Assembly (NCBI GenBank): GCA_963921275.4
Contig: OZ001293.3
Span: 4,992,001-5,056,000, forward strand
Direction of reading: 5' to 3'
Length of the DNA: 64,000 bases
Source of the DNA: an uncultured Hormoscilla sp.
Lineage (GTDB): Bacteria > Cyanobacteriota > Cyanobacteriia > Cyanobacteriales > Desertifilaceae
Position 1 is the stretch's first letter. Every line of letters starts with the position of its first letter. Below, one piece after another: positions 18,265 to 48,149 of the stretch. The notes beneath the pieces were generated by a model that searched no databases, was not told where the DNA came from, and saw only the letters and a list, made by a program, of their open reading frames with translations. The position numbers were made by a program, and so were the translations under genes.

Positions 18265-19944
18265 TTATACGGCTGCGATTTTTCGGACCGTCCGCGGGCC
18301 GATCGCCTCAACCGCTTGTTCGTATTGAGGATGCAGGCGATCGCCCGTTTGCTGGGTCGTATACAAGCGATTCAGGGCATTGACATAAGCCTGGGCGGAA
18401 GCTACGATTATATCCGTATGGGCAGCATGACCGGAAAACACTTGTTCTTCATGCTTCAATCGGATCGTTACTTCTCCGATCGCATCTATACCCGCCGTCA
18501 CCGACTGCACTGAAAACTCAATCAACTGATTCGGCACATTTACCACGCGGTTAATCGCCTTGTAAATCGCATCTACAGGACCAGTCCCGATCGCTGCATC
18601 TGTAAGTTCCTCCCCTGCGGGGGTGCGGACAGTGACAGTGGCCGTCGGATGGGAATGGTCGCCGCAGGAAACCTGCACCAAATTCAAGCGGAACATTTCC
18701 GGGACTTGCTGGAATTCATTATTAACGATCGCCTCCAAATCCCAGTCAGTAATTTCCTTCTTCTTATCCGCCAAAATTTTGAACTTGAGAAACGCATGAT
18801 TAACATCCGTCTCCGAAAGTTCAAATCCCAATTCCCGCAAGCGAGTGCCAAAAGCATTCCGACCCGAATGCTTGCCCAGGATAATCTGATTATCATTCAA
18901 ACCGATCGACTGAGCATCCATAATCTCATAAGTCAGCTTATGCTTGAGCACCCCATCTTGGTGGATACCCGACTCGTGGGCAAAAGCATTCGCCCCCACG
19001 ATCGCCTTATTTGGTTGCACCAGCATCCCCGTCAGGTTAGAAACCAAGCGAGAAGTCTTGTAAATTTCCCGGGTATTAATCTGAGTCAGGGGTTCCGCAG
19101 ACTCGGCTGGGCGTCCAAAGAAAGGATTATAATAGGAACGCCGCACGTGCAAAGCCATCACCAACTCTTCCAGGGCGGCATTTCCGGCCCGTTCTCCAAT
19201 CCCATTAATCGTGCATTCCAACTGTCGGACCCCATTTTCCACCGCCGCCAAGAAATTGGCCACCGCCAAGCCCAAATCATTGTGACCGTGGACCGAAATT
19301 ATCGCCCGATCGATATTCGGGACATTTTCTCTTATCCCTCTAATCAAACCCCCAAACTCCCCAGGGGTAGTATAGCCCACAGTATCCGGGATATTCACCG
19401 TCGTTGCCCCAGCCGCGATCGCCCTTTCGAGAACCTCATACAGAAATTCTGGGTCCGATCGGCCCGCATCTTCCGGAGAGAATTCCACATCCTCCACAAA
19501 GGACTTAGCATATGCTACCATTTCTGAAGTAATTGCCAACACCTCAGCCCTTGACTTTCTCAGCTTATACTGCAAGTGGATGTCAGAGGTCGCAATAAAC
19601 GTATGAATGCGGGGGCGTGCCGCAGGTTTTACCGCCTCACCAGCAGCCTTAATATCTTGCTCCGTAGCTCTGGCCAACCCGCAGATCGTCGGGCCATCGG
19701 GAGTCCCCACCTGGGAGGCAATCCTTTGCACCGCTGCAAAATCCCCTTTACTGGCATAAGGGAAGCCTGCCTCAATCACATCCACACCCAGTCGTGCCAG
19801 TTGCCGGGCGATCGCCAGCTTCTCATCCACATTCAGAGTGGCCCCGGGACATTGTTCTCCATCCCGGAGGGTCGTATCGAAGATAATGATGCGGTCTGCC
19901 ATGGAGTCAATTTTACTTTTCATTCTATCACAACAAGTTAACAT
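18265..19944 (-). CDS. leuA: 2-isopropylmalate synthase
   Basis: [36 protein letters not shown] and C-terminal regulatory domain. Confidence 0.97.
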
Positions 19945-20022
19945 GGGAAGTAGATAAGATTATTGTAACTCCTACATTGACTTTGATGAAATATACTACC
20001 CTGCTAGGCGCTGCCAGCAGTA

Positions 20023-21069
20023 GTGCCGCAGCATCTGGAGATCGCCCTCGAAATCTACGCGATCGTGGTAGTCGGACTGCTGATAGTCAAAGCCCAGAAG
20101 CCGATCGTCGATAGCTTAGATGCCCTCAGCGAGAAATATGCTAGCAATGAGATCCTACTCCAGTTATACGCACAACTAAGACCCCTTGTCCCCTTGCTCA
20201 AGCGATGTCTGGAGTACGCGATCTATGCCCAAATGCTGGCCCTGGCGATCGAGCGGGTGGAGCCCTTCGCCTTCTTGGCCACCTACGGCCCGATCGCAGT
20301 CAAGCTCATCGGCATCCTTTTCCTCAGCCGCGTCTCCATCGAAGTCACTAAACTGGCGATCTCCGAGATGCTGCTCCACGACCTGGATATGACTGACTTC
20401 CAGAGACGGCAGACCTTCGTCCCGCTAGTCGAGAGTTTCCTGAAATACCTGATTTACTTCGGTGCGGGCATCGTCATCCTTTATACCATCAATGTCGATC
20501 CTGCTCCCATCCTCGCTGGTGCGGGCATCGTCGGTTTGGCAGTCGGTTTGGGTACCCAGAACCTGCTCAACGATCTGGTTTGTGGATTCTTTATCCTCTT
20601 TGAAAACTACTACTTGGTAGGAGACTATATCAACCTTGGGGAAGTTGAGGGCACTGTCGAAGCGATCGAACTGAGAACCACCCGCATCCGACATCAGAAC
20701 GGTCAACTGTGCATTATTCGGAACGGGAAAATTAACAATGTGATTAACTACTCTAAGGATTATGTTTACGCTGAAGTCACAGTTGGTGTGGTTTATGATG
20801 AGCAGCTCGATCTCGTCTACAAAATTATTGAGTCGATCGGATTGCTGTTAAAAGAGAATAACCCAAACGTGCTCGAACCTACTATAGTGGAGGGACTCGA
20901 AGAGTTCGGAAATTTTCATTTGTTAGTCCGCACCATCACCAAGGTAAAGCCCGGAAAGCACCTCCAGATCCAGCGACGGATCCGTCAGATGATTAAAGAA
21001 GCCTTTGAACGGGAGGGGATTCAAATTCCCTTTGGCCAGCGCGTGTGGCTTTTGAAGAATAAAAAATAG
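20023..21069 (+). CDS. MscS-family mechanosensitive channel (N-terminally truncated paralog)
   Basis: LAGAGIVGLAVGLG, GFFILFE, VGDYI, GTVEAIELRTTRIR; lacks the N-terminal part present in the next paralog. Confidence 0.75.
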   Translation: MPQHLEIALEIYAIVVVGLLIVKAQKPIVDSLDALSEKYASNEILLQLYAQLRPLVPLLKRCLEYAIYAQMLALAIERVEPFAFLATYGPIAVKLIGILFLSRVSIEVTKLAISEMLLHDLDMTDFQRRQTFVPLVESFLKYLIYFGAGIVILYTINVDPAPILAGAGIVGLAVGLGTQNLLNDLVCGFFILFENYYLVGDYINLGEVEGTVEAIELRTTRIRHQNGQLCIIRNGKINNVINYSKDYVYAEVTVGVVYDEQLDLVYKIIESIGLLLKENNPNVLEPTIVEGLEEFGNFHLLVRTITKVKPGKHLQIQRRIRQMIKEAFEREGIQIPFGQRVWLLKNKK

Positions 21070-21278
21070 AGCGATCGCTCTTAATTTTAGCGACCTCGGA
21101 GTCAGGGGCATCTTCTTGAGGATAAAGACTTGCGGTTTATTAATGTATTCTGTGCTATTTCTTGAGTACAGCTTGTTTGACTGGTACTTGATTGTTACGG
21201 AAGTCCCATAACTCGGAAAAAGAACAAAAATCAAATGGTATAGTATCATAACAATTGCATTTAATGGGGTAGACTAGT

Positions 21279-22896
21279 ATGCCAGACTGGAACCTCTTAA
21301 TTATCAACATCTTAACGCTCTTGGCTGAAGTCAGCCTCATCATCATTGTTTTGTATCTGCTTAACTGGGTCAGTAGCAAACTCCTCAAGCAGATGGGCAA
21401 GATTTCTCAGCTCAATTTGGGGAACAATGCCAAGAGTCTGCATGGAAAAATCAAGAAGACTTCGATCCTCATTGGTTTAGTGCTATGCGTCCTCGTGGTG
21501 GGTGCCAATGGCTGGCCGATCTATCAAGGGGAAAATATTCAGGAATACACCATCGCCTTGATGGGCCGACTGCCAGCTTCATTCTGGGTAAACCTAGGTA
21601 CTATAGTCGCCAAAAGCATTGTCACAGTGACTTTGGCTGCTGTCTCTATCCGACCTCTACACAGTTTATTAGACGATGGGAAGGTCCGCGCCCAACAATT
21701 GAATGACATTACTGCCAACGATTTCCCCATTGAAATCTGGTTTGACTTCCTGAAAAAACATCTGACTAACTGCATCTGGCTGTTGGTAGTGTTGGGGTGT
21801 AGCCAGTTTCTGGGACTGCCCGCAATAGTAGTTCAATATCTGTCCATTTTTCTGAAGATCTACGCGATCGTTGCTGCCGGGTTGCTCGCAGTCAAGGCCC
21901 AGGACCCGATCGTCGACAGCTTAGAGGCCCTCAGTAATAAATACGCCAGTTCTGACAGCCTGCTGCGGTTCTACTCCGATCTCAGACACCTAGTTCTCTT
22001 ACTAAAACGATGTCTGGAATATGCCATCTATGCTTCAATGGCGACCCTGGCGATCGAGCAGGTGGAGCCGATCGCTTTTTTAGCAGCCGTAGGCCAGATC
22101 GCCGTCAAGATCACCGGCATCATTTTCCTGTCCCGTGTCTTCATCCAGGTGGGTAACCTGGCAGTCTCCGAATTACTCCTTCATAACCAGGTTCTAACTG
22201 AAACACAGAGACAGAAACGCCTGACCATCATCCCGCTGATCCAGAGTGCTCTCAAATACCTGATCTACTTTGGTGCTGGACTTTGGTGCTGGGATTGGCA
22301 TGCTCAAAACAATCAACATCGATCCTACTCCCATCCTTGCCGGTGCTGGCATCATCGGTCTAGCTGTCGGTTTGGGGACCCAAAACCTGGTCAACGATCT
22401 GGTTTCTGGTTTCTTTATTCTGTTTGACAACTACTATTTAGTGGGTGACGAGGTGGAAATTGACGATATTGAGGGGGAGGTGGAGGCGATCGACCTGAGA
22501 ACTACTCGCATTCGCCATGACGATGGTCAACTCTGCATTCTCCGCAACGGCGAGATCAATAACGTCATCAACTACTCCAAAGAGTATGTCTATGCGGTAG
22601 TGGAAGTTGGCGTCGCCTATGACTCCAATTTAGATCGTGTCTACCAAGTTATTCAGGCGATCGGAAAGCAGTTAAAAGAAAAATACTCCGAAGTGTTAGA
22701 ACCCACCCATGTGGATGGGTTAGAGAGTTTCCGGGAGTATGACCTGTTGATCCGCACTATCACCAAGGTCAAACCCGGAACCCACGAATAGATCCAGCGC
22801 ATCCTTCGCAAGATGATTAAGGAAACCTTTGACCAAGAGGGGATTGAAATTCCCTTTGCCCGTCACCTCTTACTTTTTCAGGATAAAGAAGAATAG
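21279..22896 (+). pseudogene. MscS-family channel, frameshifted and with internal stop
   Basis: 13-nt duplication near 22268-22292 shifts the frame; TAG at 22789-22791; homologous tail ends at 22896. Confidence 0.85.
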
Positions 22897-22989
22897 ATAG
22901 TTAATGGTTGGCCGTGTACTGAGAAACTGGGTTTCTCGATCCCTGTTCTGGTTTATTTATACCTGCCTACTTATCAACTATCAACCATC

Positions 22990-23508
22990 TTAAAATTCAA
23001 CTTTTTCGATAGTATTCCGAATGTCGTTCAAATCAATGTACCGGTCGGTAGCATTGCGTAACTCTCTGGCGATCATCCCCTCTGTTGACACCACAGTAAT
23101 GTGAGTGTTCTTAGATCGTAATAGTTCAATTGCCCGTTCAAAATCTCCATCCCCGCTGAACAGTATCACTCGGTCATACTGTTCTACCGTATTAAACATA
23201 TCGATCACGATTTCGATGTCTAAATTAGCCTTTTGAGAGAAGCGACCTGAACTGTCATCATAATACTCTTTGAGGATTTTCGTCCGCACAGTGTAACCCA
23301 GGCTAATCAATGCATCTCGAAATCCCCTTTGGTCTTGAGTATCTTTTATTCCCGTGTACCAAAAGGCATTAACTAAATCTACTGTTGGATCTGATGTGAA
23401 ATATTGCAGCACTCGCTTCGGGTCGAAAAACCAGCCATTTTTTTGCTGGGCATAGAACATATTGTTCCCGTCTACAAATATAGAAACACGGTTCTTCAAT
23501 GATACCAT
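22990..23508 (-). CDS. LabA/DUF88-family NYN domain protein
   Basis: IFVDGNNMFYAQ, KANLDIEIVIDM, FSGDGDF. Confidence 0.92.
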   Translation of the reverse strand: MVSLKNRVSIFVDGNNMFYAQQKNGWFFDPKRVLQYFTSDPTVDLVNAFWYTGIKDTQDQRGFRDALISLGYTVRTKILKEYYDDSSGRFSQKANLDIEIVIDMFNTVEQYDRVILFSGDGDFERAIELLRSKNTHITVVSTEGMIARELRNATDRYIDLNDIRNTIEKVEF

Positions 23509-23777
23509 AGTAGGTGTAACCTAAACTTTCGATGTTGATAACTTAAACAGAGCAATCAAGTACACTTGTGGAGGACAAGTTGCTAGACAAAGTGCGTGAC
23601 CGAGTCGCGCCGATCTCCAAATATCCTATGATTTCCCAAGTGAGAGTTGCTTTTCTTACCAGATTGGTTGACTCAGACTCTAAATTTATATAGCAGCTAA
23701 TGCAAGTCTTCACTGCCTGCTGAAATCCTATGGGGTACTAAGGTTGCGTAACTATTGCTATCTACATTACAAGGAAG

Positions 23778-24260
23778 TTAATATCTTAAACTAAATCTAT
23801 AGCTGAGGAAATCAGCAGTCGGAGGTAAGGGCAGTCGGCTGCTCTTACCTGGGCTTTTTTGTCTATTACGACATAAATTTAGGAGTTCTGTGAGAGCGCG
23901 GTCGATAATTGCGCTACTCCCGTGCGAGTCAGGAAGTTCGGCAATTTCTTCCATCAATAGAGCGATCGCCCTCAAGGTCGGCTGATTAGTTTCGTCCTTC
24001 GAGACCCCGAGGGCTTCCAACTTAGACGCTAATTCATTTGGGTTGGGCAAGGGGTGACGTCCTCCATGATTGCTGACTGGGCTAGATAAATCTTTGTTTA
24101 AGTCCAGATAGTAGGCACCGGGAATATGACCAGTCTCATACTGCTTTTGTCCCTCATCTGGGTCTGCTAGGGAAAAACGACAATCTATAATTACTACCTG
24201 GGGATCTTCTAGATGTTCCTTGAGCCAAGCAGCAGAAACAATTTCATCAGTCTCAATCAT
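23778..24260 (-). pseudogene. Truncated rhodanese/sulfurtransferase fused to unrelated sequence at a HIP1 site
   Basis: VSAAWL, IIDCRFSL, GHIPGA, GGRHPLP; homology ends near 23965 at GCGATCGC. Confidence 0.75.
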
Positions 24261-25210
24261 TTGTCAATATCTAGATGTAAGAGCGATCGCTTTATACCAC
24301 AACCAACGGCTGATGGGTCGTTTACCTTCTTCTGTGAGGAGTTTGACGAGTTTTTTCTTGTCTTAGCTGGGGCGCGTCAAGAAGCGATACAGAAGTTTGT
24401 AGTGCCCACCCGGCTGATAGCAGTAGCCAGACAACCAAAAGTGCGGTTGTTAGATATTTGTTATGGTCTGGGCTATAATACCGCCGCAGCTTTAGAGCAG
24501 ATTTGGACAGTTAATCGGAACTGCCTAGTGGAATGGGTGGGACTGGAGTTAAATCCAACTGTACCCCAAAGAGCGATCGACCATCATCTTCTCGATAGCT
24601 GGCAGTCCCCCATCCCGGAATTGCTCGCCCAGCTAGCCACCACTCACCTGTTGCAAACAGAACGCTCTCCAGCTCAGTTGCATATCGCCGATGCCCGCCA
24701 AACCATTGTACAAGTTTACAACAGGGGCTTCCGATTTTTCCAGAACGGTGCCGATGCCATTTTTCTCGACCCCTTTTCCCCGCCCCACTGTCCTGGACTT
24801 TGGACTGTGGAGTTTCTGGATCTGGTGGCCAAATGTCTGGGGGCCTAGGAGCAAGCTTGCCACCTATTCAAGTGCCGCAGCAGTCAGAAAGGCGCTGCTG
24901 TTGGCCGGGTTAAAGATTGGTTCGGTCCCGCCGGTAGGCAGGCGATCGTCCAGTACCGTTGCCAGCAGGATCGATAAGCATCTGCCCCCACTATCACCTC
25001 AAGAACGGCGCCTTCCGCGTGCTCTTGTCCTGAAGGACGCGGCAACGCTCCAGGCACCGCGAGAACATTTGCTTACCCGTGCCGCTATTCCCTACCGAGA
25101 CCCCAACCTGAGTGACAGTGCAGAGGTCATTATACAGCGACAGCGAAGCGTGTAGGGAACAGGAAGCATCTACCCTAGAGATCACCACTCAATGGCGAAA
25201 ACGTTGGTTA
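24260..25210 (+). pseudogene. MnmC/MnmD-like SAM methyltransferase, disrupted
   Basis: TADGSFTF, LDICYGLGYN, DAIFLDPFSP, LATYS..AAVR, AAIPYRDP; frameshift near 24845, stop near 25153, two foreign inserts. Confidence 0.8.
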
Positions 25211-26128
25211 AAGTCCTAGCTTTTGCAGCACTGGTTTTGTGGAAACAACATGCTTGTCTAACCCCAGCTGTTTGGGACTAATTCCCAGGGCCAGAACCAC
25301 CAGTTGCGGGAGGTGCAGCACTGGTAGGCCCAACTTACGTGCAATTACCCCTTCCACTTCCGGTTGACGGGAGTCTAAATTCAAATGGCACAGGGGACAA
25401 GGAGTTACTATGCAATCAGCACCAGCGGCGATCGCCTCTTGAATATGCATCCCCGCCATCTGAAAAGACTGGGTGGTAGCATAGCTAGAAATTGGCCAGC
25501 CACAGCATTGAGTCCTTCCCCGATAATAAATTGGCTCTGCCCCAACTGCCCGGAAGACATTCTCCATTGACTCTGGTTGGTTTGGGTCATCATAGGGCAT
25601 ATGGGTTTGGGCCCGCAGTAGATAACAGCCATAAAATGCCGCGCATTTGAGACCTGTCAGCTGGCGAGTTACTTTTGCTTGTATAGCCTCTAGACCATAA
25701 TCTGCCACCAAGGCCCACAGTATATGTTTAACCTCCGTACTGCCTCGATAGGGGGAACAGCCCTCTTTTGTAAGTAAGCCGTTAATCTGTTCTACATAGG
25801 TGGGGTCTGTCTGTTGGCATTCCTTGAGGCGCTCGTCTACGTGACCGATAACCCCCTGACAAGTACTGCAATGAGTCAGCAAGGGTAGATTGAGTTCCTC
25901 TGCTAGGGCAATATTACGGGCATTGACAGCATCTTCCAGCAGTTGGGAATCCTCCTTAAAGGTGCCCGAACCACAACAGGCCGCCCGTTTCAGCTCAATC
26001 AGTTCAATCCCCAAAGCTTGGGTGAGGGCCCCAGTAGACATGTATAGTTCCCGGCAAGCTCCTTGAGCAACGCAACCGGGAAAATAAGCATATTTTCGGG
26101 TCACTACCGTGCCGGAAAAATCGGACAT
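25208..26128 (-). CDS. hdrB: Heterodisulfide reductase subunit B-like CCG-domain protein
   Basis: YAYFPGC, ACCGSG, HCSTC, FYGCYL, QCCGW, TPCPLC. Confidence 0.9.
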   Translation of the reverse strand: MSDFSGTVVTRKYAYFPGCVAQGACRELYMSTGALTQALGIELIELKRAACCGSGTFKEDSQLLEDAVNARNIALAEELNLPLLTHCSTCQGVIGHVDERLKECQQTDPTYVEQINGLLTKEGCSPYRGSTEVKHILWALVADYGLEAIQAKVTRQLTGLKCAAFYGCYLLRAQTHMPYDDPNQPESMENVFRAVGAEPIYYRGRTQCCGWPISSYATTQSFQMAGMHIQEAIAAGADCIVTPCPLCHLNLDSRQPEVEGVIARKLGLPVLHLPQLVVLALGISPKQLGLDKHVVSTKPVLQKLGL

Positions 26129-26357
26129 GATATTATCTCCTAGTTGTGAGTGGTTACTGGTCGCTGGTCGCTGATCATCGATCCCATGCCTACCGTACCA
26201 TCACAGCCATTACAGGGACAAATTTGAGGATCAGGATCCCTTTCCGATAAGATTGCGCTGCGCGCACGCTACGCGATCGAAAAATGCTTTAGAATTGTAC
26301 GGCCCGTAGTCGGTAACCCGTCGCGGACTAGGTTGATATATTACCCCCGAAGAGGTT

Positions 26358-26609
26358 ATGAGCCAAGAAACAACTTTAGAGAGAGTCCAAAAAATTGTAG
26401 TGGATCAACTGAGTGTGGATGCTAGCGAAGTCAAACCAGAAGCCAGTTTTACTGAGGATCTGGGGGCAGACTCCCTGGATACGGTGGAACTGGTGATGGC
26501 CCTAGAAGAAGAGTTTGGGATTGAAATCCCTGACGAAGTCGCCGAAAAAATAGACACGGTTGGCAAGGCTGTCGAGCATATTAATGAAAAAGTGCAAGCT
26601 CCAGCCTGA
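26358..26609 (+). CDS. acpP: Acyl carrier protein
   Basis: [20 protein letters not shown]. Confidence 0.98.
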
Positions 26610-26710
26610 TCGCGCAGCAGCGACCGCGCCATCGGTAGATCGCTGCTAGTCCTGATTCCGATTTTTCCGGAACGGTAGAGGGATAACGAATAATTGATGA
26701 TTTTTGACAA

Positions 26711-27961
26711 ATGACTTCACGAAAACAAGTTGTAGTCACCGGTCTCGGCGCGATTACGCCAATAGGCAATACTCTCGCCGAGTATTGGGAAGGATTATTG
26801 AGCGGGCGCAATGGTATTGGCAAGATCACCTTGTTCACGGCAGACGAGCATAAATGTAGAATTGCTGGTGAGGTCAAGGATTACGATCCCCTCGACTACA
26901 TGACTGAGAAAGAAGCAAAGCGCATGAGTCGCTTTGCCCAGTTTGCAGTTTCAGCCAGCAAGCAAGCCATATCTGATGCGGAGTTCGTGATTAATGACTT
27001 GAACGCCGAACAGGTGGGTGTCATTATTGGCTCGGGGGTGGGTGGTCTGAAGGTTCTCGAAGAGCAGCAAGAGATTTACCTGAACAAGGGCCCTTCTCGC
27101 TGTAGCCCCTTCATGATTCCGATGATGATTGCAAATATGGCTGCAGGTTGGACGGCCATTACGACGGGGGCGAAAGGACCTAATACTTGCCCGGTAACGG
27201 CCTGTGCCGCTGGCTCTCATGCGGTGGGAGATGCCTTTCGCTTGATTCAAGCAGGTTTGGCTCAGGCGATGATTTGTGGGGGGACGGAAGCTGCTGTTAC
27301 GCCTTTGTCGGTGGCGGGTTTCGCCAGCGCTAAGGCCCTATCCATTCGCAATGATGACCCCGGCCATGCCAGTCGTCCTTTCGATCGCGATCGGGATGGC
27401 TTTGTCCTGGGTGAGGGGACCGGCATCCTGTTGCTGGAAGCGCTAGAACATGCCCGTCAGCGCAATGCCAAGATCTATGCGGAAATTGTCGGCTATGGCA
27501 TGACTTGCGATGCCTATCACATGACGGCCCCAGTCCCTGGTGGCCAGGGAGCTGCTCGGGCCATAGCGCTAGCGTTGAAGGATGCTAGTTTAACTCCGGA
27601 CATGGTAAGTTATATCAATGCTCACGGGACTAGTACCCCAGCAAATGACAGCACGGAAACGGCTGCGATTAAAAGTGTTTTGGGTGAAAGTGCCTACCAG
27701 GTGGCGATTAGCTCTACTAAGTCCATGACTGGTCATCTATTAGGGGGCTCCGGCGGCATAGAAGCTGTGGCTACGGTGATGGCGATCACCCATGATAAAG
27801 TACCGCCGACGATTAATTTAGAGAACCCAGATCCAGAGTGCGATTTGGATTATGTCCCCAAGGAGTACCGGGAAATGCCAGTAGAAGTGGCTCTGTCCAA
27901 TTCCTTCGGATTTGGGGGTCACAACGTTACCCTAGCATTCAAAAAGTACCGCGAACTCTGA
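26711..27961 (+). CDS. fabF: Beta-ketoacyl-ACP synthase II
   Basis: TACAAG, INAHGTST, KSMTGHLLG, NSFGFGGHN. Confidence 0.98.
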   Translation: MTSRKQVVVTGLGAITPIGNTLAEYWEGLLSGRNGIGKITLFTADEHKCRIAGEVKDYDPLDYMTEKEAKRMSRFAQFAVSASKQAISDAEFVINDLNAEQVGVIIGSGVGGLKVLEEQQEIYLNKGPSRCSPFMIPMMIANMAAGWTAITTGAKGPNTCPVTACAAGSHAVGDAFRLIQAGLAQAMICGGTEAAVTPLSVAGFASAKALSIRNDDPGHASRPFDRDRDGFVLGEGTGILLLEALEHARQRNAKIYAEIVGYGMTCDAYHMTAPVPGGQGAARAIALALKDASLTPDMVSYINAHGTSTPANDSTETAAIKSVLGESAYQVAISSTKSMTGHLLGGSGGIEAVATVMAITHDKVPPTINLENPDPECDLDYVPKEYREMPVEVALSNSFGFGGHNVTLAFKKYREL

Positions 27962-28196
27962 TGGCGCTGCGCTGGGGGCGCAGCCATGTATGCAAGGGTA
28001 TATATGAAGAGTTGAGATTGGGAAAATAGATAGCAGATAAAAAGCAATTTGTCAAGCTTTGTAATTCCCAATCTCAAAAAAAATGCTTTGCCCCATGCAG
28101 CACCTAATGGGAAGATGGAGAGGGTAGCGAGGGTAGGGTCGCTCCCAAATAGAAGTTCACCCCAGACGCTAAATCATTGTCAAGAAGAGAGAAATT

Positions 28197-30695: not shown

Positions 30696-30698
30696 ATC

Positions 30699-31760: not shown

Positions 31761-32451
31761 GGTAACATCATATAGTAATCCCAAATGATATATGAAGGCT
31801 TCCAAACCCGGTAAGGGAGGAGAAACCGGGTTGATGGCAGGGTATATAGTTGACAAAGAAAATCCCGACGATAATGGTGGGCCGGAAGATTGCTTACGGT
31901 TGTACTATCGCACTGTGGACCTGACTCCAAGGACCCCGATCGCCCCGCCTGTTTTTCCAGCGTAGCATGTAATGGGCAACTTCACCGCCAGCGGAATTCT
32001 CATGCTTGACAACATAAGGACTGGCGCTAGGAACATCCAAAAGCAGGTATTCTTTGGGGTTTTTGGACTTAGGGTTACCCCCCAGCCAAAGAGCAAATTT
32101 CGCAACCGGTTACCCCAGAGGGTTTGCCACGACGGTTGGGGGTTGCTTCGTCCATAAAGTGAATGGTGTGTTGCAGTCGCTGACCCATTTTTATCCTTGC
32201 CATCGGTCGAGTTGTCGGTGGGTCAACCCGGGTGCGACCTACCGTTCCGGAAAAATCGGTCGGTACATTCATCAAGGGATGGTAGGGGGCGTGAGTCAGC
32301 AGGATCGAGGGTGATAGCGGGACTTTGAGATTTTCTCAGGCAAAAAACGGCTTCTTAGCTTACGGGGTGTGGATTTTACGTCGAAGGGGTGAATCGGCAG
32401 CAAACCCGCTCGCCTGGGTCGAGCTCGACCAGCTCGACCCCACTGTGGCTC

Positions 32452-36144: not shown

Positions 36145-37782
<1,638 letters not shown>

Positions 37783-38373: not shown

Positions 38374-38535
38374 GGCGTTGCACAATCACGGGATGATGAG
38401 CATAGTTGCAAAAGTTTTAAACTTAGGCGTTGCACAATCACGGGATGATGAGCATAGTTGCAGAAGTTTTAAACTTAGACTACAAGCTATTTTCAGTTAT
38501 GTGCAAAAAATAGTATCATCCCCAAAATGTGCAAC
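38374..38535. mobile_element. IS1-end-derived MITE with a duplicated left part
   Basis: ggcgttgcac...gggatga at 38374 and 38426, inverted end tcatccccaaaatgtgcaac; homologous to 39328-39441. Confidence 0.65.
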
Positions 38536-38999
38536 AATTATTGGTTTGTATCATCCTCAACACGAGCAAGGCCGGGTTTTTATGGAAGTGTTTTTCAAGT
38601 AAGTTTTTGAGTGAGGGGAACGCTGCGCGAAAAATAGAACTGTGCGGCTGACAACGGTCGCTCCTTTTTTCGCTTTTATCACATGAGTGATATAGTCCCC
38701 AAGATGGCGAAAGTAGTTCTTCCTACCATTAGCTAATCGAGTTCGATATGGGTAAATAATGCTTTAAATTATTACATGAAAAGGGTTTGAGCGAATCGGC
38801 AGCCACGGAAACTTACCAGCAGCAGTGGAAGTCACCTGCTGCATATGCTTGTGGCCCCGAAGACAAACCTGCTTGGTGGAGAATGGGTATGCTTTTCTCA
38901 CATGAATTAAGCAACATTTTCCTGGTTAAACTCACGTGAATGATATTTTGCGGCCACATATATCTAGATTAAAGTCACATTGATTGAGAAAATAGTCAC

Positions 39000-39260
39000 A
39001 TGACTCTATGACAAAGTCACATGAAGTGAGAGCTTTTTCACGTGACTCTATGGCAAAGTTGCGTTACTCTATGGCAAAGTAACGCAACTTAAACGCAGAG
39101 TTGCGCAACTTTATTGCAGAGTCATGCAATTTAAACGCAGAGTTGCGCAACTCTATTGCAGAGTTACGCAACTTAAACGCAGAGTCACGCAACTTAAACG
39201 CAGAATCACGCAACTTAAACGCAGAGTCACGCAACTTAAACGCAGAGTCACGTTACTTAA
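39000..39260. repeat. 21-bp tandem repeat array (heptad SRNLNAE if translated)
   Basis: (gtcacgcaacttaaacgcaga)n with degenerate flanking units. Confidence 0.85.
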
Positions 39261-39327
39261 TATACTGGTCATGTGACTTTTACGCAGATGATCCGATAAC
39301 AGTTGCTCAAAACCTCATGTAAGGGTT

Positions 39328-39512
39328 GGTGTTGCACTTCGGACGGGATGATGAGCATCGTTGCAGAAGTTTTAAACGTAGACTACAAGCCACTTTCAGT
39401 TATATGCCAAAAATGGCATCATCCCCAAAATGTGCAACGCCAAAAAAGATTTGGATCTGGACGGTCGTTGACCACTTTCAACCTGGTATTCTCGGATGGG
39501 TAGTGGGAGACC
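39328..39512 (+). mobile_element. IS1-type MITE (39328-39441) followed by an IS1 transposase fragment
   Basis: Inverted ends ggtgttgcac / gtgcaacgcc; next 70 nt read KKIWIWTVVDHFQPGILGWVVGD. Confidence 0.7.
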
Positions 39513-39681
39513 AGTTACAGCATTAGCCCTAAATCGGGAAAGAGTTATTCCTATCCGTGAGGCAGACAAAGCATTAGGGCGGCATCCACCACTAGGCGAT
39601 TTAATTCAGTCCGACAATTGACAATCAGGTACGATATCGCCGTGACTATATTTGTATCGAGCAGGTAACTCATGTTGCCAA

Positions 39682-39975
39682 CTATCTCCCTTCTACTGCT
39701 GCCTCGAAGATTTCCATTTGCTCTGGCGTGAGCAGGTTTAATGTTCCAGAAACAGCCTCTATCACCATTATTCTATCCACCCTTACTGTCAGTTCGTCAT
39801 GGTCTAGATAGAGCAGTTTTTCTGGAGAAACCCGTTCTAACAGATTTGAGAAAACTTGCATTATTTCGTCTTTGTCTAATCGCTCCCGGAATAGATACTC
39901 CCTTTGCATCAACTTATCCACTATCTCCGAAATTCGGCTTATGACTGTATCCTTGGTCGTAGAAAATTGGGTCAT
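39682..39975 (-). CDS. Putative antitoxin paralog; downstream PIN toxin truncated
   Basis: Similar to 30402-30695; followed by MSYLLDTNIVTA stub from 39673. Confidence 0.7.
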   Translation of the reverse strand: MTQFSTTKDTVISRISEIVDKLMQREYLFRERLDKDEIMQVFSNLLERVSPEKLLYLDHDELTVRVDRIMVIEAVSGTLNLLTPEQMEIFEAAVEGR

Positions 39976-40304
39976 AATTTCCTCTTTGTCAAGTTGACAC
40001 TAAAAATTTTCTCGTTCCCTGACTCCGGCAGGGAACGCCCCTCTTGAGGCTCTGCCTCCTGAGAATAAAGGGAGGCGGGAGCCTCCCTATACCCGTTCCC
40101 AGCGAGGACGCGCTCGATCGACGATACATGACCGTGTAGATATCGCCTCCGAGGCTTTTGTCCGATCGGCGTTGGCAATAAAAGCTGCTGCTGCGACTGA
40201 CTAGGAGTCCGCCATTAAAGAAATAGTAAACTCCAGCCCCAGCTATTGCCAGCAAAGCAATTACCGTTGCAACGACAACTGAGTTGAGTCCGTTTCTTGA
40301 GCTT

Positions 40305-41199
40305 GTTAAACTAAGCCAGGGTGTTGCCACCCCGTCTCGTCTTCAGAACCGGACGATCTGCTTTTCATCTCATCCGGCTCCTCAGTAATGCCATCCCTGT
40401 CATGGATACGGCGACTACCATCGCTGGCAGTTTTTTTTTACATCGTAGCAGTTGTCGCCACGTTGTGCCGCTCTGTAAATTCTCAGAAGCAAAAGACTTT
40501 CCTTTCCAGCTTTCGCCAGGGGGGGTTGTCCTCCATTCATTCATCGGTTTGATTACCGTGCTCATAAGGTTTTTACTGCTACTTACAACTTCACATTTGA
40601 CATTACCGTGGTCGGCTTATCCTGTCCATTACAGATAGGCGTTTGCTTCTCCACGAAATCCTTCCTAATCATGACCTGCCTGATGAAGGCAGAGGTTGCG
40701 CCTTTGGTGGCTACTCTCTCTATCGACTCGATAGAGAGTACATGATCAGGTTACTTCGTTCCTACAGATGATTAGTTGTAGCTAAGGATGGATTCCTTAC
40801 GCCGAATTTGTTGTCGGTGCTTACTGGTCGGTGAGCAGAACCGCCAGCGACCTGTATCCTTTCCCTTTTGGGCCGTCAGCCTTATTTCACTGGTTTTATG
40901 TTACGACGCTGCAAATCTTTGCTTTATGCTCATCATGGCTACTTGCTTGGCTTCGATGCCTGAGGGATGCAAGGCAGGCAACCCCTCAGGCATCGGACCG
41001 GTGTAGGCTACCAGTCGCCTTTCATTCCCGCTTTACGGATTGATACCATCGCTACCGTCGGGAATGTGCTGTCACTCCTACACCTGGAGGGGTGGGCTTT
41101 CACCACCATCATCTGTAAGTTGTCAGGGTTTTGTGTTACCCTGCTAGCGGTCCCTTTTACCGGTTATCACCGGTGGAATTTACGCTAAACGAATCGCAC
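40305..41199 (-). mobile_element. Group II intron (895 nt) with internally deleted IEP
   Basis: 5' GTGCGATTCGTTTAG, 3' GGCTTAGTTTAAC; ribozyme collinear with the 59772-62161 intron; IEP stub MSTVIKPMNEW at 40565; EBS1 CTGCT matches exon end TAGCAG. Confidence 0.92.
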
Positions 41200-41311
41200 C
41201 TGCTACCCCTGCCAAAGTCAGGGAACGCATTTTTGAGGCAAAGCCTCCAGCCCTTGACAATTATGGCATATTGAGTATACTAAAGTTCGTACTTGTTCCT
41301 AGAAGATAGCG

Positions 41312-41584
41312 ATGAATATTTTGCTGACACCAGAACTAGAGCAATTTGTCAATGAACGGGTAGAAAAGGGTGAATATCAAGATGCGCTGTCGGTTATTAG
41401 TGCCAGGTTGCGGCTGTTGTCAGAACGGGAACGCATCTATAAAGGACGCTTTGCTGAACTGAAACGGGATGTGATGATTGGAAAAGAACAGCTTGAACGT
41501 GGCGAGGTAATTGATGGAGAAGCTGTGTTTGATGAAATGGAAGAAGATATTTGGCTTCTAGAATCCGTTCGTAGGTTGGGTTGA
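41312..41584 (+). CDS. ParD-like ribbon-helix-helix antitoxin, no adjacent toxin
   Basis: MNILLTPELEQFVNERVEKGEY...G.EQLERGEVIDGE.VF. Confidence 0.8.
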   Translation: MNILLTPELEQFVNERVEKGEYQDALSVISARLRLLSERERIYKGRFAELKRDVMIGKEQLERGEVIDGEAVFDEMEEDIWLLESVRRLG

Positions 41585-41651
41585 CGCCAGGAAACCCAAC
41601 AAAAATCCCATAGCCGTGACTATATTTGTATCGGGTAAATCATGTCGCAAA

Positions 41652-41945
41652 CTATCTCCCTTCTACTGCTGCATCGAAGATATCCATTTGCTCTGTCGTG
41701 AGCTGGTTTAATGTTCCAGAAACGGCCTCTATCACCATTATCCTATCCACCCTTGCTGTCAGTTCGTCATCCTCTAGATAGAGCAATTTGTCTGGAGAAA
41801 CCCGTTCTAACAGATTTGAGAAAACTTGCATTACTTCGTCTTTGTCTAATCGCTCCTGGAATAGATACTCGCTTTGCATCAACCTATCCACTATATCCGA
41901 GATCCGATTAATGACTGTATCTTTGGTCGTATAAATTTGGGTCAT
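41652..41945 (-). CDS. Putative antitoxin paralog; downstream PIN toxin truncated
   Basis: Near-copy of 39682-39975; ATG at 41945 with GGAGG SD; toxin stub at 41643-41615. Confidence 0.7.
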   Translation of the reverse strand: MTQIYTTKDTVINRISDIVDRLMQSEYLFQERLDKDEVMQVFSNLLERVSPDKLLYLEDDELTARVDRIMVIEAVSGTLNQLTTEQMDIFDAAVEGR

Positions 41946-42036
41946 AATGTCCTCCTTGTTCAGTAGGTTCGTAGGTGGGGTTGACGCCAGGAAACCCCAA
42001 CAAAGATCGCAGTAACACGGGTTGGGTTGAGGAACG

Positions 42037-42907
42037 GGATGGGGTCGAGCCGGGAATCGCTTCCCGACCCTCCCTTGAGGAACCGGACTTGCGATTTTCA
42101 CCGCATCCGGCTACTGGGTACTAGGCCCTTTTCATAGGTAGACTTAATAGGAATTACTTCCGTTAGCCCTTGCCGCCTGTCTTTTCTTCCCTTTCCTGGT
42201 TTAGCGAGTGGTTGTTCTGATAACCGTTAGTATCACCATTTTCAAGTCAGTTTTACCAGTTATCCATACCTTATCCTCCACTTGCGTTTCGGATTAGTTC
42301 CGTGGCTTTTTAGGATTACTCATTCCAGCAGCTTCCTAGTATCACCGACCCACGTCAGCGCTGGCTACCCAGCATCATCTACATTACTGTAGATGTTATC
42401 CCAGGAATTACCCCGGGCATTCGCTTCTTGGGCCATCCCTCCCCCCGTGGCTTGCGCTTAACATCTAACTTGTCCTGATGGACAGCACACGAGAGGTTAC
42501 TTCGTTCCCTAACAACATTTCGCGATACCTTTAGGTCCACACTATACCCCGGGAGCTATTTGAGTACTATATTAGCCAGAGTCTAAAACTAATACTAGCT
42601 ACCATTTCCTTTTTAGGCCAGCGCATATAGCCTTATTTCGCTGGTTCCTTATAACGAGGCTTGCACATGTTTGCCTGCTCTAACCTTGGATATCTTTCCT
42701 AGCGGCGTCACCGGCTTAGGCTGCCAGTTATCCTACATTTGAGTCCTCGCTTAGCACCACGATGATGTCGCTTCGTAGCACCGAGGACCGGTGTCACCCC
42801 CGTACCTGGGGGGAGGGGAATTTAACCCCCATGCGGTCAGAGTTCCCGGCTAATGAAACCGGGCTAGCGTTCCGTGTTTGACCACGTTAGGCTAGAACGA
42901 ATCGCAC
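42037..42907 (-). mobile_element. ORF-less group II intron (871 nt) inserted in a REP-like repeat
   Basis: 5' GTGCGATTCGTTCTAG; DV GTAGCCGGATGCGGTGAAAATCGCAAGTCCGGTTC; empty copy of the target (gaggaacg|aaacccaacc) at about 43174-43191. Confidence 0.95.
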
Positions 42908-42994
42908 AAACCCAACCTACAGCCATTAGCCATTCGCAATTAGCAATTAGACCATTTTGTCAAAATGTGGTTACAATTTTTAACCATTATCCTA

Positions 42995-43204
42995 TTAGTC
43001 GGTTTTAACCGACTTTAGCTATTAGCCGGGGGTTTGAACCCCCGGCGGGCTGACGGCGGGCTGACGGCAGGCTGACAGCGAAGTGAGTAAGTTCGGTTGA
43101 CGCCAGTTTTTAGTTCGTAGGTTGGGTTGACGCCAGGAAACCCAACAAAGATCGCAGTAACACGGGTTTGCTTGAGGAACGAAACCCAACCTACAGCCAT
43201 TAGC
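42995..43204. repeat. Stack of REP-like repeats (AGTCGGTTTTAACCGACT family and GTAGGTTGGGTTGA...AAACCCAAC family)
   Basis: Palindromic units also at 38030-38072, 41570-41600, 41965-42036, 46765-46890. Confidence 0.75.
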
Positions 43205-43347
43205 TAAAGTGCTTACTACAAACCTTCGGAAGCACTAAAGTGCTTACTACAAACCTTCGGAAGCACTAAAGTGCTTACTACAAACCTTCGGAAGCACTAA
43301 AGTGCTTACTACAAACTGCAAACAAAGGTTCGTAGTAAGCACTTTAG
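43204..43347. repeat. 31-bp tandem repeat (3 full units plus a partial) closed by an inverted arm
   Basis: ctaaagtgcttactacaaaccttcggaagca at 43204, 43235, 43266 and partial at 43297; inverted gtagtaagcactttag at about 43332. Confidence 0.9.
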
Positions 43348-43362
43348 TCCTTCTTAATAAGG

Positions 43363-45775
43363 TCACTTCCACTCCCGCACTTCGGGCATATCCTGACCGT
43401 GCTTTGCGATATAATGCTTGTGTTCGATCAGCCGATCGCGGATATTCTGTTTAGCATAAGCAGCAGCATATCCCAATTGGGGCACCCGATCGATCGCATC
43501 CGCCGCTAGGTGAAAGCGATCAAGGTCATTGCGGACGACCATATCAAAGGGAGTAGTAGTAGTACCCTCTTCCTTATAGCCTCGGACATGGAGATTTTGG
43601 TGGTTAGTCCGGCGATAGGTAAGGCGATGGATCAGCCAGGGATAGCCGTGATAGACGAAGACGATCGGTTTATCAGTAGTAAAGATAGTATCGAAGTCTC
43701 GATCGGACAGACCGTGGGGATGTTCGCTTTGAGGTTGCAGGGTCATCAAGTCAACCACATTCACCACGCGGATCTTCAGTTCCTGAAATTGTTGACGGAG
43801 AAAGTCCACTGCTGCTAGAGTTTCCAAGGTAGGAACATCCCCAGCGCAAGCCATCACCACATCGGGTTCCGAACCCTGGTCGTTACTGGCCCATTCCCAA
43901 ATGCCAATTCCAGCAGTACAATGCTCCATCGCCGCCTTCATGTCCAGGTATTGTAAGGAGGGTTGCTTACCCGCGACAATTACATTCACATAGTTGCGGC
44001 TCCGCAGACAATGGTCGGTCACGGACAGGAGAGTATTAGTATCAGGGGGTAGGTAAACCCGAATCACGTCCGCCTTCTTGTTGATTACGTGATCGATAAA
44101 GCCAGGGTCTTGGTGGGAAAAGCCATTGTGGTCTTGTCGCCAGACATGGGAAGTCAGCAGGTAGTTCAGAGAGGCGATCGGGCGACGCCAAGGAATTTCG
44201 TTGCGAGTAGTTTTCAGCCACTTAGCATGTTGGTTAAACATGGAGTCGATCAGGTGAATGAACGCCTCGTAGCAGGAGAAGAAGCCGTGGCGACCGGTGA
44301 GGAGATAGCCTTCCAGCCAGCCTTGGCAGGTATGTTCGCTGAGAATTTCCATCACCCGACCGTTGCTAGCCAGGTGGTCGTCTTCGGGGAGAAAATCAGC
44401 TACCCAGGTGCGATCGGTGGCTTCAAACAGGGCGCTGAGACGGTTAGAAGCAGTTTCGTCGGGACCGAACACCCGGAAGTTGGTCATGTTTTGCTTCATC
44501 ACGTTCCGCATAAAACCTCCCATGACTCGGATGGCTATGGCTGCGCCACGCTGCGCGATCGGCGAAGGTGGTGGCTGGTTTGGAGACTTCGATCCCATAG
44601 TCCCGGAAGTCGGGCATTTTCAAGTCCCTCAGCAGGATGCCACCGTTAGCGTGGGGGTTGGCACCCATGCGCCGACCGCCCTTGGGTGCCAGTTCTGCCA
44701 ATTCTGGAATTAATGTGCCATTCTCGTCAAAGAGTTCTTCGGGTTTGTAACTCTTCATCCAGTCTTCCAGCAGTTGGACGTTTACTGGTTTCGTTGCCAT
44801 TTCCGAGAACGGTACTTGGTGACTGCGCCAGTAATCTTCCGTTTTCTTGCCATCCACTTCCTTGGGACCTGTCCAACCCTTGGGCGATCGCAAGACAATC
44901 ATCGGCCATTGGGGGCGCTGGGTAAAGCCCTTGCGGCGGGCATCCTGCTGAATGGCTTTGATATCTGCGATCGCCCGTTCCAGGGTGGCCGCCATCAACT
45001 GGTGCATAGTTTCCGGGTCGGACCCCTCAACAAAATAGGGTTTATAACCGTAACCGACAAACAAGCTTTCCAACTCTGAATGGGAGATCCGGGCCAAAAC
45101 CGTAGGATTAGCAATTTTATAGCCATTCAGGTGTAAAATGGGCAGGACCGCACCATCATGAACCGGGTTAAGGAACTTATTAGAATGCCAACTGGTAGCC
45201 AGGGGACCAGTTTCCGCCTCCCCGTCACCAACAACGCAAGCAACGATCAAGTCCGGGTTATCGAAAGCAGCGCCATAAGCATGAGAAAGAGCATAACCCA
45301 GTTCGCCCCCCTCGTGGATAGAACCCGGGGTTTCCGGGGCTACGTGACTGGGGATCCCGCCGGGGAAAGAGAACTGCTTGAAAAGTTTCTTCATCCCCTC
45401 AGCATCCTGGGAAATATTCGGGTAAACTTCAGTGTAAGTACCCTCCAGGTAAGTATTAGCAACCAACCCGGGACCGCCATGACCCGGACCTGCAATATAG
45501 ATAATATTCAGGTCTAGAGCCTTAATCATCCGGTTGAGGTGAACGTAGATAAAATTAAGACCTGGAGTAGTGCCCCAATGTCCCAACAGCCGAGGTTTAA
45601 CATGTTCTAGTTTCAGAGATTCTTTGAGCAGGGGGTTGTCAAACAGATAAATTTGTCCCACCGAAAGGTAGTTCGCCGCCCGCCAGTAAGCATTCATCGA
45701 GCGCAACTCTTCTGGGGCGAGGGTTTTTTCTGAAGTTATCGCCGTAGCTATGGGTCTTTCCGTTGTAACTGTCAT
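43363..45775 (-). pseudogene. xfp: Phosphoketolase, frameshifted by a 22-nt insertion
   Basis: [38 protein letters not shown]; removing 44537-44558 restores TFAEAIRVMG and joins the two ORFs. Confidence 0.92.
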
Positions 45776-46043
45776 ATTCCTACTCTAAGCTATTGGTCAT
45801 TATTCTCCAACTTAAAGGCTGCTGCCATGAAGTGAATAATAATTTTAGTATCTTTTAACTTTAACTCAGACTTAACCTAAAATTAAGTAAATGTTGAGAT
45901 ATAAAAAGAAGGGGAGATAAAAGAAAAATGTTGTATAATCAAAAAAACGCGATCACTCTAGGATGGTGGGGCGAGAGGATGTGAGGATGGTCCGATCGCC
46001 TGTCTAGACAAGGAAACAGATAGAGGTTAAGAAAAGGATAACC

Positions 46044-46704
46044 ATGAGCTTAAAATTGTATTTTATCCGACATGGGGAAACGGTTTACAGCCAGAAAGGG
46101 GGCTACTGCGGCTCCCTAGATCCGGAGTTAACCAGCGTGGGGATAAAAATGGCAGAATAGTTTGCCGCAGCCTATCATTCTCTCCCCTGGGTAGCAGCCT
46201 ATGTAAGTCCCATGCAGCGGACGATCGCGACGGCGAAACCCTTTATGTGCAGCAGTGGGACTGGAAATGCAACTGCGGGAGGGCTTAAAAGAGATAGCCT
46301 ATGGGAAGTGGGAAGGTCAGTTACCAGAAACGGTAAATAGAGATTTCCACGATGACTACGTCCGCTGGTTAACGGATCGGGTTGGAATGCACCGACAGGG
46401 GGGGAAAGAGGAGTAGATATCGCCCGTCGTTCCGTTCGCGCAGCGTGGCGCAGCCATAGCAGTGATTCACGAGATATGCGAGAATTATCAAACAGGCAAT
46501 GTTTTGGTAGTCTCCCACAAGGCAACTATTAGAATAATGCTATGTAACCTATTGGGAATAGATGTGGGACGCTTCCGCGATCGCATAGCCATGCCAGTTG
46601 GGGGAGTCAGCCTGGTGGAGTTAGGAGTTCACGGTCCTCTGATGCATGCATTGGCAGACCGCAGCTATCTGGAGGAAAACCTGTGATCTTTACCTGGTCA
46701 TTAA
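46044..46704 (+). pseudogene. Histidine phosphatase family protein, multiple lesions
   Basis: IRHGET, VSPMQRT, VSHKATIR; in-frame stops, frameshifts and a 22-nt insert at 46436-46457. Confidence 0.85.
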
Positions 46705-46932
46705 TATATTGATAGTTACGCGATAAAAATCGAGGCGGGCCATGAGAATAAGAGACAATATTTGTAGTCGGTTAAAACCGACTATAGCTATGACGCGGGG
46801 GTTTGATCCCCCGCCGGGTCAGGAGGCTAAGAGACAATATTTGTAGTCGGTTTTAACCGACTTCAGCTATTAGCCGGGGGTTTGAACTGCGGGCCAGGAG
46901 GCTAAGAGACTGTTTAGTTGGGAAGAAATGGG

Positions 46933-48149
46933 ATGAAAATATTGGTACTAAACGCGGGTTCGGTTCTCAGAAAAGTTGTCTGTATGAAATAGCTGAGAAG
47001 ACATTACCCCAACAACCTCCCAAACCACTTTGGGAAGCGAATATAGACTGGAGTGGAACGCTGCGCGAAAAATCGACAGATTTTGGAGAAATGAAGGTTA
47101 AAGCTAAAGGAGTTAAGCTAGAAGTTAAACTGCCAGGGCGAGAAGGGGCAATCGCCCAAATGCTAGAGACTCTCAGTCAGGAAAAAACCCAGGTATTGCA
47201 GCAGTTATCAGAAATAGATATCGTCGGACATCGGGTGGTACATGGAGGTGCAGAATATACGAGGGCTACCTTCATTACTCCCGAAGTTAAAGAGGCGATC
47301 GCCCGCCTAGTACCCCTAGCACCCAGTCACAACCCAGCCCATTTAGAGGGAATAGAAGCGATCGAGGAAGTATTAGGCAAGGTGCCCCAGGTAGCAGTAT
47401 TTGATACAGCCTTTCACAGCCAGATGCCGAAAGCCGCTGTAGTGTATCCGATCCCCTACGAGTGGTTTGAGCAAGGCATCCGTCGCTATGGGTTTCACGG
47501 CACGAGTCATAAATATGCATCAGGAAGGGCGGCCCAAATACTGGGAAAATCCCTAGGAGAACTGCGACTGATTACTTGTCATTTGGGCAATGGCTGCTCC
47601 TTGACAGCCGTCAAGAATGGAGTAAGTATTGATACAACAATGGGGTTCACGCCCCTGGAAGGGTTAATGATGGGAACTCGCAGTGGTTCCATCGACCCAG
47701 CAATCATAATCTACTTGATGCGCCAGCATAATTACGACGTCGATAAATTAGATCGAATGCTGAACAAGGCTTCGGGGTTAAAAGGAATTATGGGAAAATC
47801 CGGAGATATGCGCCATGTTTTGCAGGCGATCGCCGAGGGTGACGAACAGGCGCAACTGGCCTTTGACATGTACGTGCATCGCCTGCGTGCAAGCATAGGA
47901 TCTATGGTTGCGAGTCTGGGCGGTTTAGAGGCGATAGTCTTTACCGCAGGCGTTGGCGAAAATGCAGCAGCAGTAAGGGAGGCCACTTGCGCCGGGTTTG
48001 AGTTCCTGGGGTTGAAACTGGACAAAGAAAAAAATCTCTCATCCCCAAAAGACATAGATATTGCTACCCTAGACTCAGCGGTGCGCGTGTTGGTGGTGCA
48101 GACAGCAGAAGATTGGGCGATCGCCTGCGAATGTTGGTATCTTGGTTAA
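46933..48149 (+). pseudogene. ackA: Acetate kinase with 5' frameshift
   Basis: MKILVLNAGS then a 1-nt loss (SSQKSCLY continues in another frame); GHRVVHGG, FDTAFH, HLGNG, FTAGVGEN intact in ORF 47091-48149. Confidence 0.85.

Follow-up and report, generated by a model that had tools for sequence, protein, structure and literature searches.

Micro-elements inserted directly after CGA add short peptides to proteins in the cyanobacterial genus Hormoscilla

A 64,000-nucleotide (nt) stretch of the genome of an uncultured Hormoscilla sp. (contig OZ001293.3, positions 4,992,001 to 5,056,000) contains short, closely similar sequences that mostly follow the trinucleotide CGA, several of them inside genes. 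Their presence raises the question of whether they are insertions, what rule places them and what kind of DNA they represent. A preliminary description of this stretch, hereafter the window, had proposed a modular family of 15-, 18- and 24-nt micro-elements that add peptides in frame to proteins through a common integration mechanism recognizing CGA. In what follows, coordinates are positions in the window, G000 is the genome to which it belongs (7.03 Mb) and G001 to G004 are four Hormoscilla congeners.

Architecture and precise insertion of the micro-elements

The window contains the nonamer CGATTTTTC 12 times where 0.92 occurrences are expected, a count that none of 100 dinucleotide shuffles reached. 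In the genome it is present 518 times, whereas base composition predicts about 63 and the reversed word is found 62 times. As many as 368 of these 518 nonamers continue into one of four fixed bodies with a common head: a 24-mer (TTTTTCGGGCCGTCCGCGGACCGT, with the variant TTTTTCGGACCGTCCGCGGGCCGA), two 15-mers and a 50-mer. The commonest family is the 15-mer TTTTTCCGGAACGGT, which ends in CGGAACGGT and is named the CGGAACGGT family; the second 15-mer, TTTTTCGCGCAGCGT, ends in GCGCAGCGT and is named the GCGCAGCG family. Exact copies number 199 for the CGGAACGGT 15-mer, 99 for the GCGCAGCG 15-mer and 71 for the 24-mer, the whole-genome total is about 380, and a relaxed search of the window recovered 14 copies (six 24-mers, five CGGAACGGT 15-mers and three GCGCAGCG 15-mers; Table 1). 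The enrichment of the nonamer in window and genome, together with these 14 copies, establishes that the micro-element family proposed in the preliminary description is real. All eight of the loci listed there hold a copy, and six copies come in addition to them (a degenerate 15-mer at 15904-15918 and five 24-mers between 48483 and 49298). The 18-mer that had been reported in ackA is instead the 15-mer TTTTTCGCGCAGCGT at 47058-47072, as the congeners lack exactly 15 nt both in ackA and at 15783.

The bodies share one plan: a run of five T leads into a stem-loop that has C as its first and G as its last base, and a single T or A ends the element. The stem-loop spans 9 nt in both 15-mers (CCG-GAA-CGG and CGC-GCA-GCG) and 18 nt in the 24-mer, where a 7-bp stem, mismatched at one position, carries the loop TCCG; in the 50-mer it spans 44 nt, and the body of this family forms a hairpin of 20 bp without a mismatch. 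Among 211 and 73 cores, 199 and 71, respectively, have a T-run of precisely five, and no truncated copy was found among 78 cores of the 24-mer. Folded as DNA, the 24-mer reaches -7 to -11 kcal/mol compared with about -4 for shuffled sequences, and the 50-mer -25 compared with -4. The proposal that element lengths are multiples of three holds for the three families found in genes and fails for the fourth, which is 50 nt long and contains stop codons; as read from their sequences, the three short families are free of stop codons in all six frames. Two further arrangements were observed: one CGGAACGGT 15-mer is split by another small hairpin (G000:C1, row 'cggcggtgtcttccgcggaagacgccggaacggt'), so that elements nest in one another, and tandem copies occur where an A-ending copy remakes CGA.

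Comparison with the four congeners demonstrates that these segments are insertions. Filled and empty alleles differ by exactly 15 or 24 nt in all 23 comparisons, and the target is not duplicated beyond an incidental junction ambiguity of 1-4 nt; 17 of the 23 pairs come from loci fetched around elements of the congeners and aligned to G000. The left flank of the empty allele is CGA in 17 cases, TGA in three, AGA in two and TAA in one, and 17 of the 23 empty sites are identical to the filled flank. The insertions are recent, and among 24 congener elements that can be aligned to G000, 14 are empty in G000, six are shared and four are ambiguous.

The host genes of the window illustrate the outcome. 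The leuA product ends in EAIAAV, EAMAAV or EAIAGV in the four congeners, without the eight extra residues, and the congeners keep an intact HIP1 octamer at the place of the 24 additional bases of G000. The hdrB-like gene reads ATGTCCGA (or ATGTCCGC) uninterrupted in all four, with 15 bases in between in G000, and this junction is unambiguous, with zero duplication. Likewise, orthologues of the hdrB-like, MnmC2-like and ackA genes lack the five residues, and alignments of acetate kinase to PDB entries begin only past the ackA insert. In-frame peptide addition, as originally proposed, is therefore borne out at these four genes.

Table 1. Copies of the micro-elements in the window, with their host genes and related features.
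Feature	Coordinates	Strand	Remarks
15-mer, GCGCAGCG family, A-ending	15783..15797	-	intergenic, CGA|TCGCGC site; missing from the orthologous place in G001, G002 and G004
Degenerate 15-mer, CGGAACGGT family	15904..15918	+	two substitutions; after CCGA
leuA (2-isopropylmalate synthase), host gene	18265..19944	-	Pfam HMGL-like, HCS_D2, LeuA_dimer
24-mer, A-ending variant	18279..18302	+	splits HIP1 octamer in the leuA tail; adds GPRTVRKI
15-mer, one substitution	24735..24749	+	in MnmC2-like methyltransferase gene; adds FFQNG; 15 nt absent from G001, G002 and G004
HdrB-like CCG-domain protein, host gene	25208..26128	-	Pfam CCG, NCBIfam TIGR03288-like
15-mer, C variant	26106..26120	-	after codon 2 of the hdrB-like gene; adds DFSGT; absent from G001-G004
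15-mer	26662..26676	+	after TTCCGA, upstream of fabF
Empty CGA|AAA site, fabF codons 4-5	26720..26725	+	G001 has a GCGCAGCG-family 15-mer here
15-mer	32241..32255	-	after ACCGA; site without annotated family
15-mer, GCGCAGCG family	38620..38634	-	left flank CTA, not CGA
15-mer, GCGCAGCG family	47058..47072	-	in ackA, antisense to the gene; net +5 residues; 15 nt missing in G002, G003 and G004
ISKra4-family insertion sequence (IS)	48371..49738	-	about 1368 nt; about 12 genomic copies; NF033572, E 1e-42, below the curated cut-off
24-mer, T-ending, IS copy 5	48483..48506	-	same position in 12 IS copies
24-mer, IS copy 4	48776..48799	-	in ISKra4-family IS
24-mer, IS copy 3	48810..48833	-	10 nt from copy 4
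24-mer, IS copy 2	49104..49127	-	read DFSGRPRTV; gap here in the G018 homologue
24-mer, IS copy 1	49275..49298	-	read DFSGRPRTV; gap here in the G018 homologue

Target sites and effects on genes

One common insertion rule, directly 3' of CGA, governs the micro-elements, and the wider target is specific to each family. Counted over distinct sites, the left flank is CGA for 24 of 28 24-mers, 151 of 180 CGGAACGGT 15-mers, 80 of 86 GCGCAGCG 15-mers and 10 of 12 50-mers. A shared rule recognizing CGA, as the preliminary description had suggested, thus fits most distinct sites as well as the 17 empty sites that already carried CGA, the claim that every copy follows this motif failing at 38620. Likeness to other copies drops to background past positions -6 and +3.

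The CGGAACGGT 15-mer prefers TTCCGA|RG and avoids CGA|TCG (12 of 183 sites). At its sites C stands at -4 in 95%, T at -5 in 56% (23% at 50,485 unoccupied CCGA) and a purine at +1 in 92% (43% at unoccupied CCGA), and C is never found at +1. The HIP1 core CGA|TCG is favored by the 24-mer (16 of 28) and by the GCGCAGCG 15-mer (30 of 86), compared with 14% of all CGA, in a genome that holds 4,754 HIP1 octamers. The suspected tie to HIP1 is therefore supported in part, by these two families and not by the commonest one. The last base of the 24-mer tracks its target, since TCG follows next in 15 of 17 copies ending in A and in none of 11 ending in T. At HIP1 sites the junction of the 24-mer is ambiguous over 3-4 nt.

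To place these copies relative to genes, coding-like open reading frames (ORFs) were called by a rough codon-usage score and sites in single-copy context were counted. Coding-like ORFs hold 12 of 21 24-mers, 89 of 157 CGGAACGGT 15-mers and 36 of 67 GCGCAGCG 15-mers, that is, 54-57% compared with 61% of random positions. The orientation of the CGGAACGGT 15-mer relative to the gene is even, with 45 copies on the same strand and 44 antisense, and its reading frame is biased: 38 of the 45 same-strand copies read DFSGT compared with 58% expected from the frames of free CCGA sites (about 3.6 standard deviations), and 31 of the 44 antisense copies read TVPEK compared with 34% expected (about 5 standard deviations; both figures are our own arithmetic). 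Genes thus tolerate these insertions and show a bias of frame. Because the short families have lengths that are multiples of three and lack stops in all six frames, insertions in genes are often tolerated. At least 137 coding-like ORFs in a single genome have gained five or eight residues, so that these insertions are a visible way in which protein length evolves, and lineage-specific 'loops' in proteins of these symbionts will be selfish DNA rather than adaptations.

Several side observations concern the same genes. In ackA (46934-46975), a 1-nt deletion relative to G002 lies just past the MKILVLNAGS codons and puts the N-terminal ATP-binding motif out of frame with the remaining gene (frame open from 46857), which means that the gene is a pseudogene or that the assembly is in error here. 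At 24840-24855, a 1-nt insertion relative to G002 divides the MnmC2-like methyltransferase gene (24213-25155) between two frames; short-read contigs of three runs, possibly from the source sample, match the window at this frameshift. With regard to polymorphism within a sample, contigs of three runs that span the stretch are identical to the window and one sponge-metagenome run is congener-like; because contigs drop rare variants and the runs are possibly those of the source sample, this carries no weight either way. Public short-read contigs terminate at micro-elements and other small repeats or next to them (18278-18303, 25015-25040 and 26254-26278), so that micro-elements fragment short-read assemblies. 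In addition, in-frame extra segments of 24, 54 and 45 nt distinguish G000 from its congeners (13784-13807; 25006-25059; and, in G004, a segment matching 24608). These segments lack the five-T head, the 45-nt segment of G004 forms a hairpin, and they may be further micro-element families.

Passengers in larger elements and distribution among genomes

The ISKra4-family IS of the window carries five 24-mers in each of its approximately 12 genomic copies, so that about 53 of some 85 genomic 24-mers are IS passengers. A 37%-identical homologue from another genus (G018) shows alignment gaps at all four 24-mers that lie within the ORF, and the transposase frame of the IS that contains them is still open. 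Four copies of this IS contain a 927-nt insert at one position (window approximately 49189; G000:C1:3483535-3484462). Separately, a GCGCAGCG 15-mer was observed at a fixed place upstream of domain 5/6 in about 15 diverged group II intron copies (for example G000:C1:403488), where it could be a passenger of long standing or belong to the intron itself. Matches to domain 5/6 of group II introns number at least 151, 144, 143 and 111 in four element-rich Hormoscilla genomes, and 0 to 5 in nine genomes of sister genera, which are element-free where tested. G001 has both the fewest micro-elements (53) and only two intron matches.

The families are restricted to one genus. All five genomes of Hormoscilla, an oscillatorian sponge-symbiont genus outside the Nostocaceae, contain the three short families, with totals per genome ranging sevenfold from 53 to about 380 copies. 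The 24-mer is present in 83 copies in G000 and in 12, 36, 203 and 78 copies in the four congeners, which hold 22, 119, 127 and 105 copies of the CGGAACGGT family and 19, 19, 39 and 32 of the GCGCAGCG family. No 24-mer was found in the sister-genus genome G007 or in 400 other genomes sampled across the phylum, and neither 15-mer was found in the sister-genus genome G005. A scan of one genome per species (185,579 species) returned at least 105 stretches, and all 80 matches listed belong to Hormoscilla. A genome of another family in the same order, G041, contains CGATTTTTC 254 times compared with 27 for the reversed word, a ninefold excess. It was rejected as a carrier of the shared head, since all 30 distinct sites in the sampled loci continue into unrelated sequence, which indicates composition and not an element.

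Possible mechanisms and known systems

Taken together, these data very probably identify mobile micro-elements as such. The alternative that they are not mobile, and instead reflect either the conservation of a peptide or DNA motif or the skewed composition of CGAT-rich genomes, is exceedingly improbable. The excess in G041 without a repeated element does indicate that the nonamer by itself can be compositional, yet most nonamers of G000 run into four fixed bodies, and the empty sites and the orthologues that lack the segments refute this view. It is also distinctly improbable that the segments spread with no dedicated enzyme, by microhomology-guided template switching or short-patch gene conversion with the flanks (CGA...TCGC, TTCCGA...RG) as tiny arms. 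Many 24-mer and GCGCAGCG copies do lie between the halves of abundant HIP1-like sites, the preferred flank TTCCG could pair with CGGAA within the 15-mer, and in four comparisons (15783, ackA and two other loci) filled and empty alleles disagree in the bases immediately to the left of the insert, as expected of a conversion tract. Arms of 4-6 nt, however, fall far short of what homologous recombination needs, and such a process is at odds with ends that are exact in every comparison, with a similarity between copies that is at background past -6/+3 and with the exact match of the filled flank in 17 empty sites.

A role for reverse transcription is likewise improbable. Here a short RNA (A, stem-loop, AAAAA) would be copied at a nick after CGA by group II intron reverse transcriptases, with the 3' end of the target priming on the five A. 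This route draws on the opposite strand of every element, which reads precisely A, stem-loop, AAAAA, on a loose correlation between intron load and element load across the five Hormoscilla genomes and sister genera, which is also the one support for the RT-templated repair raised in the preliminary description, and on the 15-mer held at a fixed place in diverged introns. Nonetheless, the A/T run is fixed at five, unlike a variable tail, the 24-mer cores include no truncated copies and G001 retains its 53 elements despite having two introns; the correlation itself comes from related, non-independent genomes, in which relaxed selection on symbionts could raise both loads.

Our favored reading, which we hold with moderate confidence, is that the modules are ultra-small, non-autonomous mobile DNA of the small dispersed repeat (SDR) type, mobilized in trans through HUH-like insertion at the DNA level. 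Machinery encoded elsewhere in the genome would insert a copy immediately after CGA and leave the target unduplicated, with each family using its own wider target and taking T as its last base, or A in CGA|TCG sites. The trans-acting enzyme would cut and insert at the DNA level in a sequence-specific manner, like the single-strand HUH tyrosine transposases, and selection would afterwards retain mainly the mild, loop-like frames (DFSGT and TVPEK), so that the micro-elements would provide a steady supply of 5- and 8-residue protein additions. The signature of the elements is closest to that of single-strand HUH systems: they enter 3' of a short motif and do not duplicate it, their ends are exact, they contain a stem-loop and their target depends on the family. 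By this analogy, a mover of the HUH tyrosine transposase class (IS200/IS605, REP-like) can be put forward tentatively, as a possibility that we do not rate as likely.

A number of results weigh against trans-mobilization of this kind. A candidate enzyme was not found, in that no tyrosine-transposase gene tracks the elements. Y1/RAYT genes were rejected as the mover, as the genome has two PF01797 matches and neither has an element within 1.5 kb; a RAYT-like gene was found in only one of four congeners with the query used, and an IS200-like gene is present also in an element-free sister genus. No orientation switch between replichores was seen, although the weak GC skew makes this a weak test. 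The 15-mers fold no better than their shuffles (-1.9 to -3.0 compared with -1.0 to -1.9 kcal/mol), which makes a hairpin cue doubtful for them. Finally, six of the 23 empty sites read AGA, TGA or TAA where the filled allele has CGA, and the left flank may be partly rewritten at insertion. A longer autonomous element with the same head was also considered and rejected, as conservation extends to the left of the nonamer in every multi-copy repeat that includes it, which makes the nonamer internal to these repeats.

In a bolder form, which we consider unlikely, these would be the smallest self-defined mobile units: a 15-nt module would be copied by a trans-acting enzyme class new to transposition, possibly a group II intron reverse transcriptase, the target would be read in part through TTCCG/CGGAA pairing, and the head would accept any stem-loop, yielding a general 'micro-insertion' engine for protein loops and termini across the genus. 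On our favored reading, a little-studied class of mobile DNA, whose members have room neither for a coding sequence nor for a pair of transposase-binding ends, would extend to a new cyanobacterial lineage. The exact ends, the family-specific target of about 9 nt, the 23 empty sites, the sevenfold range in copy number and the element-free sister genus provide clean material for the study of mechanism.

Among known systems, IS200/IS605 elements are moved by the Y1 HUH transposase TnpA, integrate on the 3' side of a short motif without duplicating their target, bear hairpins at their ends and show a family-specific target; these elements and their miniatures have a hairpin at each end, exceed 100 nt and display a replication strand bias. 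The micro-elements resemble them in inserting 3' of a fixed short motif, without duplication and at family-specific targets. They differ in measuring 15-50 nt with one stem-loop, in showing no replication strand bias, as far as the weak GC skew allows this to be seen, and in that no transposase gene matches or tracks them. The Rickettsia palindromic elements, which Ogata et al. are said to have described in 2000, are reportedly selfish palindromes of about 100-150 bp lying in frame in many protein genes; they are alike in adding peptides in frame and differ in size, in phylum and in having no CGA rule. REP elements are short palindromic repeats that number in the hundreds and that RAYT, a single-copy enzyme, is believed to mobilize in trans; they are described as extragenic and as bearing a GTAG or CGTC tag (PMC3733652, PMC3116915). 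The micro-elements match this description in forming hundreds of short stem-loop repeats and depart from it in lying in genes about as often as random positions do and in having a TTTTT head after CGA without a GTAG or CGTC tag. Furthermore, a RAYT-like gene was not found in three of the four congeners with the query used.

The closest parallel is with the SDRs. Elhai, Kato, Cousins, Lindblad and Costa reportedly described SDR4, SDR5 and SDR6 of the Nostocaceae in 2008 (Genome Res 18:1484). As summarized in later papers, the SDRs of Elhai et al. 2008 (PMC4390886, PMC5861425) are very small dispersed repeats of about 21-27 nt in Nostocaceae (PMC4390886, PMC5861425, PMC13756078) and are stated not to be found outside that family (PMC5861425); SDR5, given as 21 nt long (PMC13756078), inserts precisely between bases 3 and 4 of HIP1 (PMC4390886). 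A search of one large genome of another family for HIP1 split by 21 nt gave no recurrent insert among the 100 matches listed. The strings of the elements had no match in a literature text search, and in the main text of the Hormoscilla genome paper (PMC6520454) a term search brought up nothing about repeats of this type, nor about such transposases, pseudogenes or insertions.

The micro-elements share with SDRs, as these are summarized, a tiny size, many dispersed copies and mobility visible as presence or absence in relatives. The 24-mer comes nearest to SDR5 in splitting HIP1-like CGA|TCG at 16 of 28 distinct sites, and the placement of SDR5 between bases 3 and 4 is compatible, within the 3-4 nt ambiguity, with that of the 24-mer, including the copy in leuA. 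They differ from the published descriptions in their host, which is Hormoscilla and not a member of the Nostocaceae, in that two of their families are only 15 nt long, below the published size range, and in that the commonest family targets TTCCGA|RG rather than HIP1, a comparison made by description and not by sequence. Relative to SDRs as summarized in these sources, what is new is the host lineage, the minimal size of 15 nt, the combination of a common head with stem-loops that can be exchanged, and a second target distinct from HIP1.

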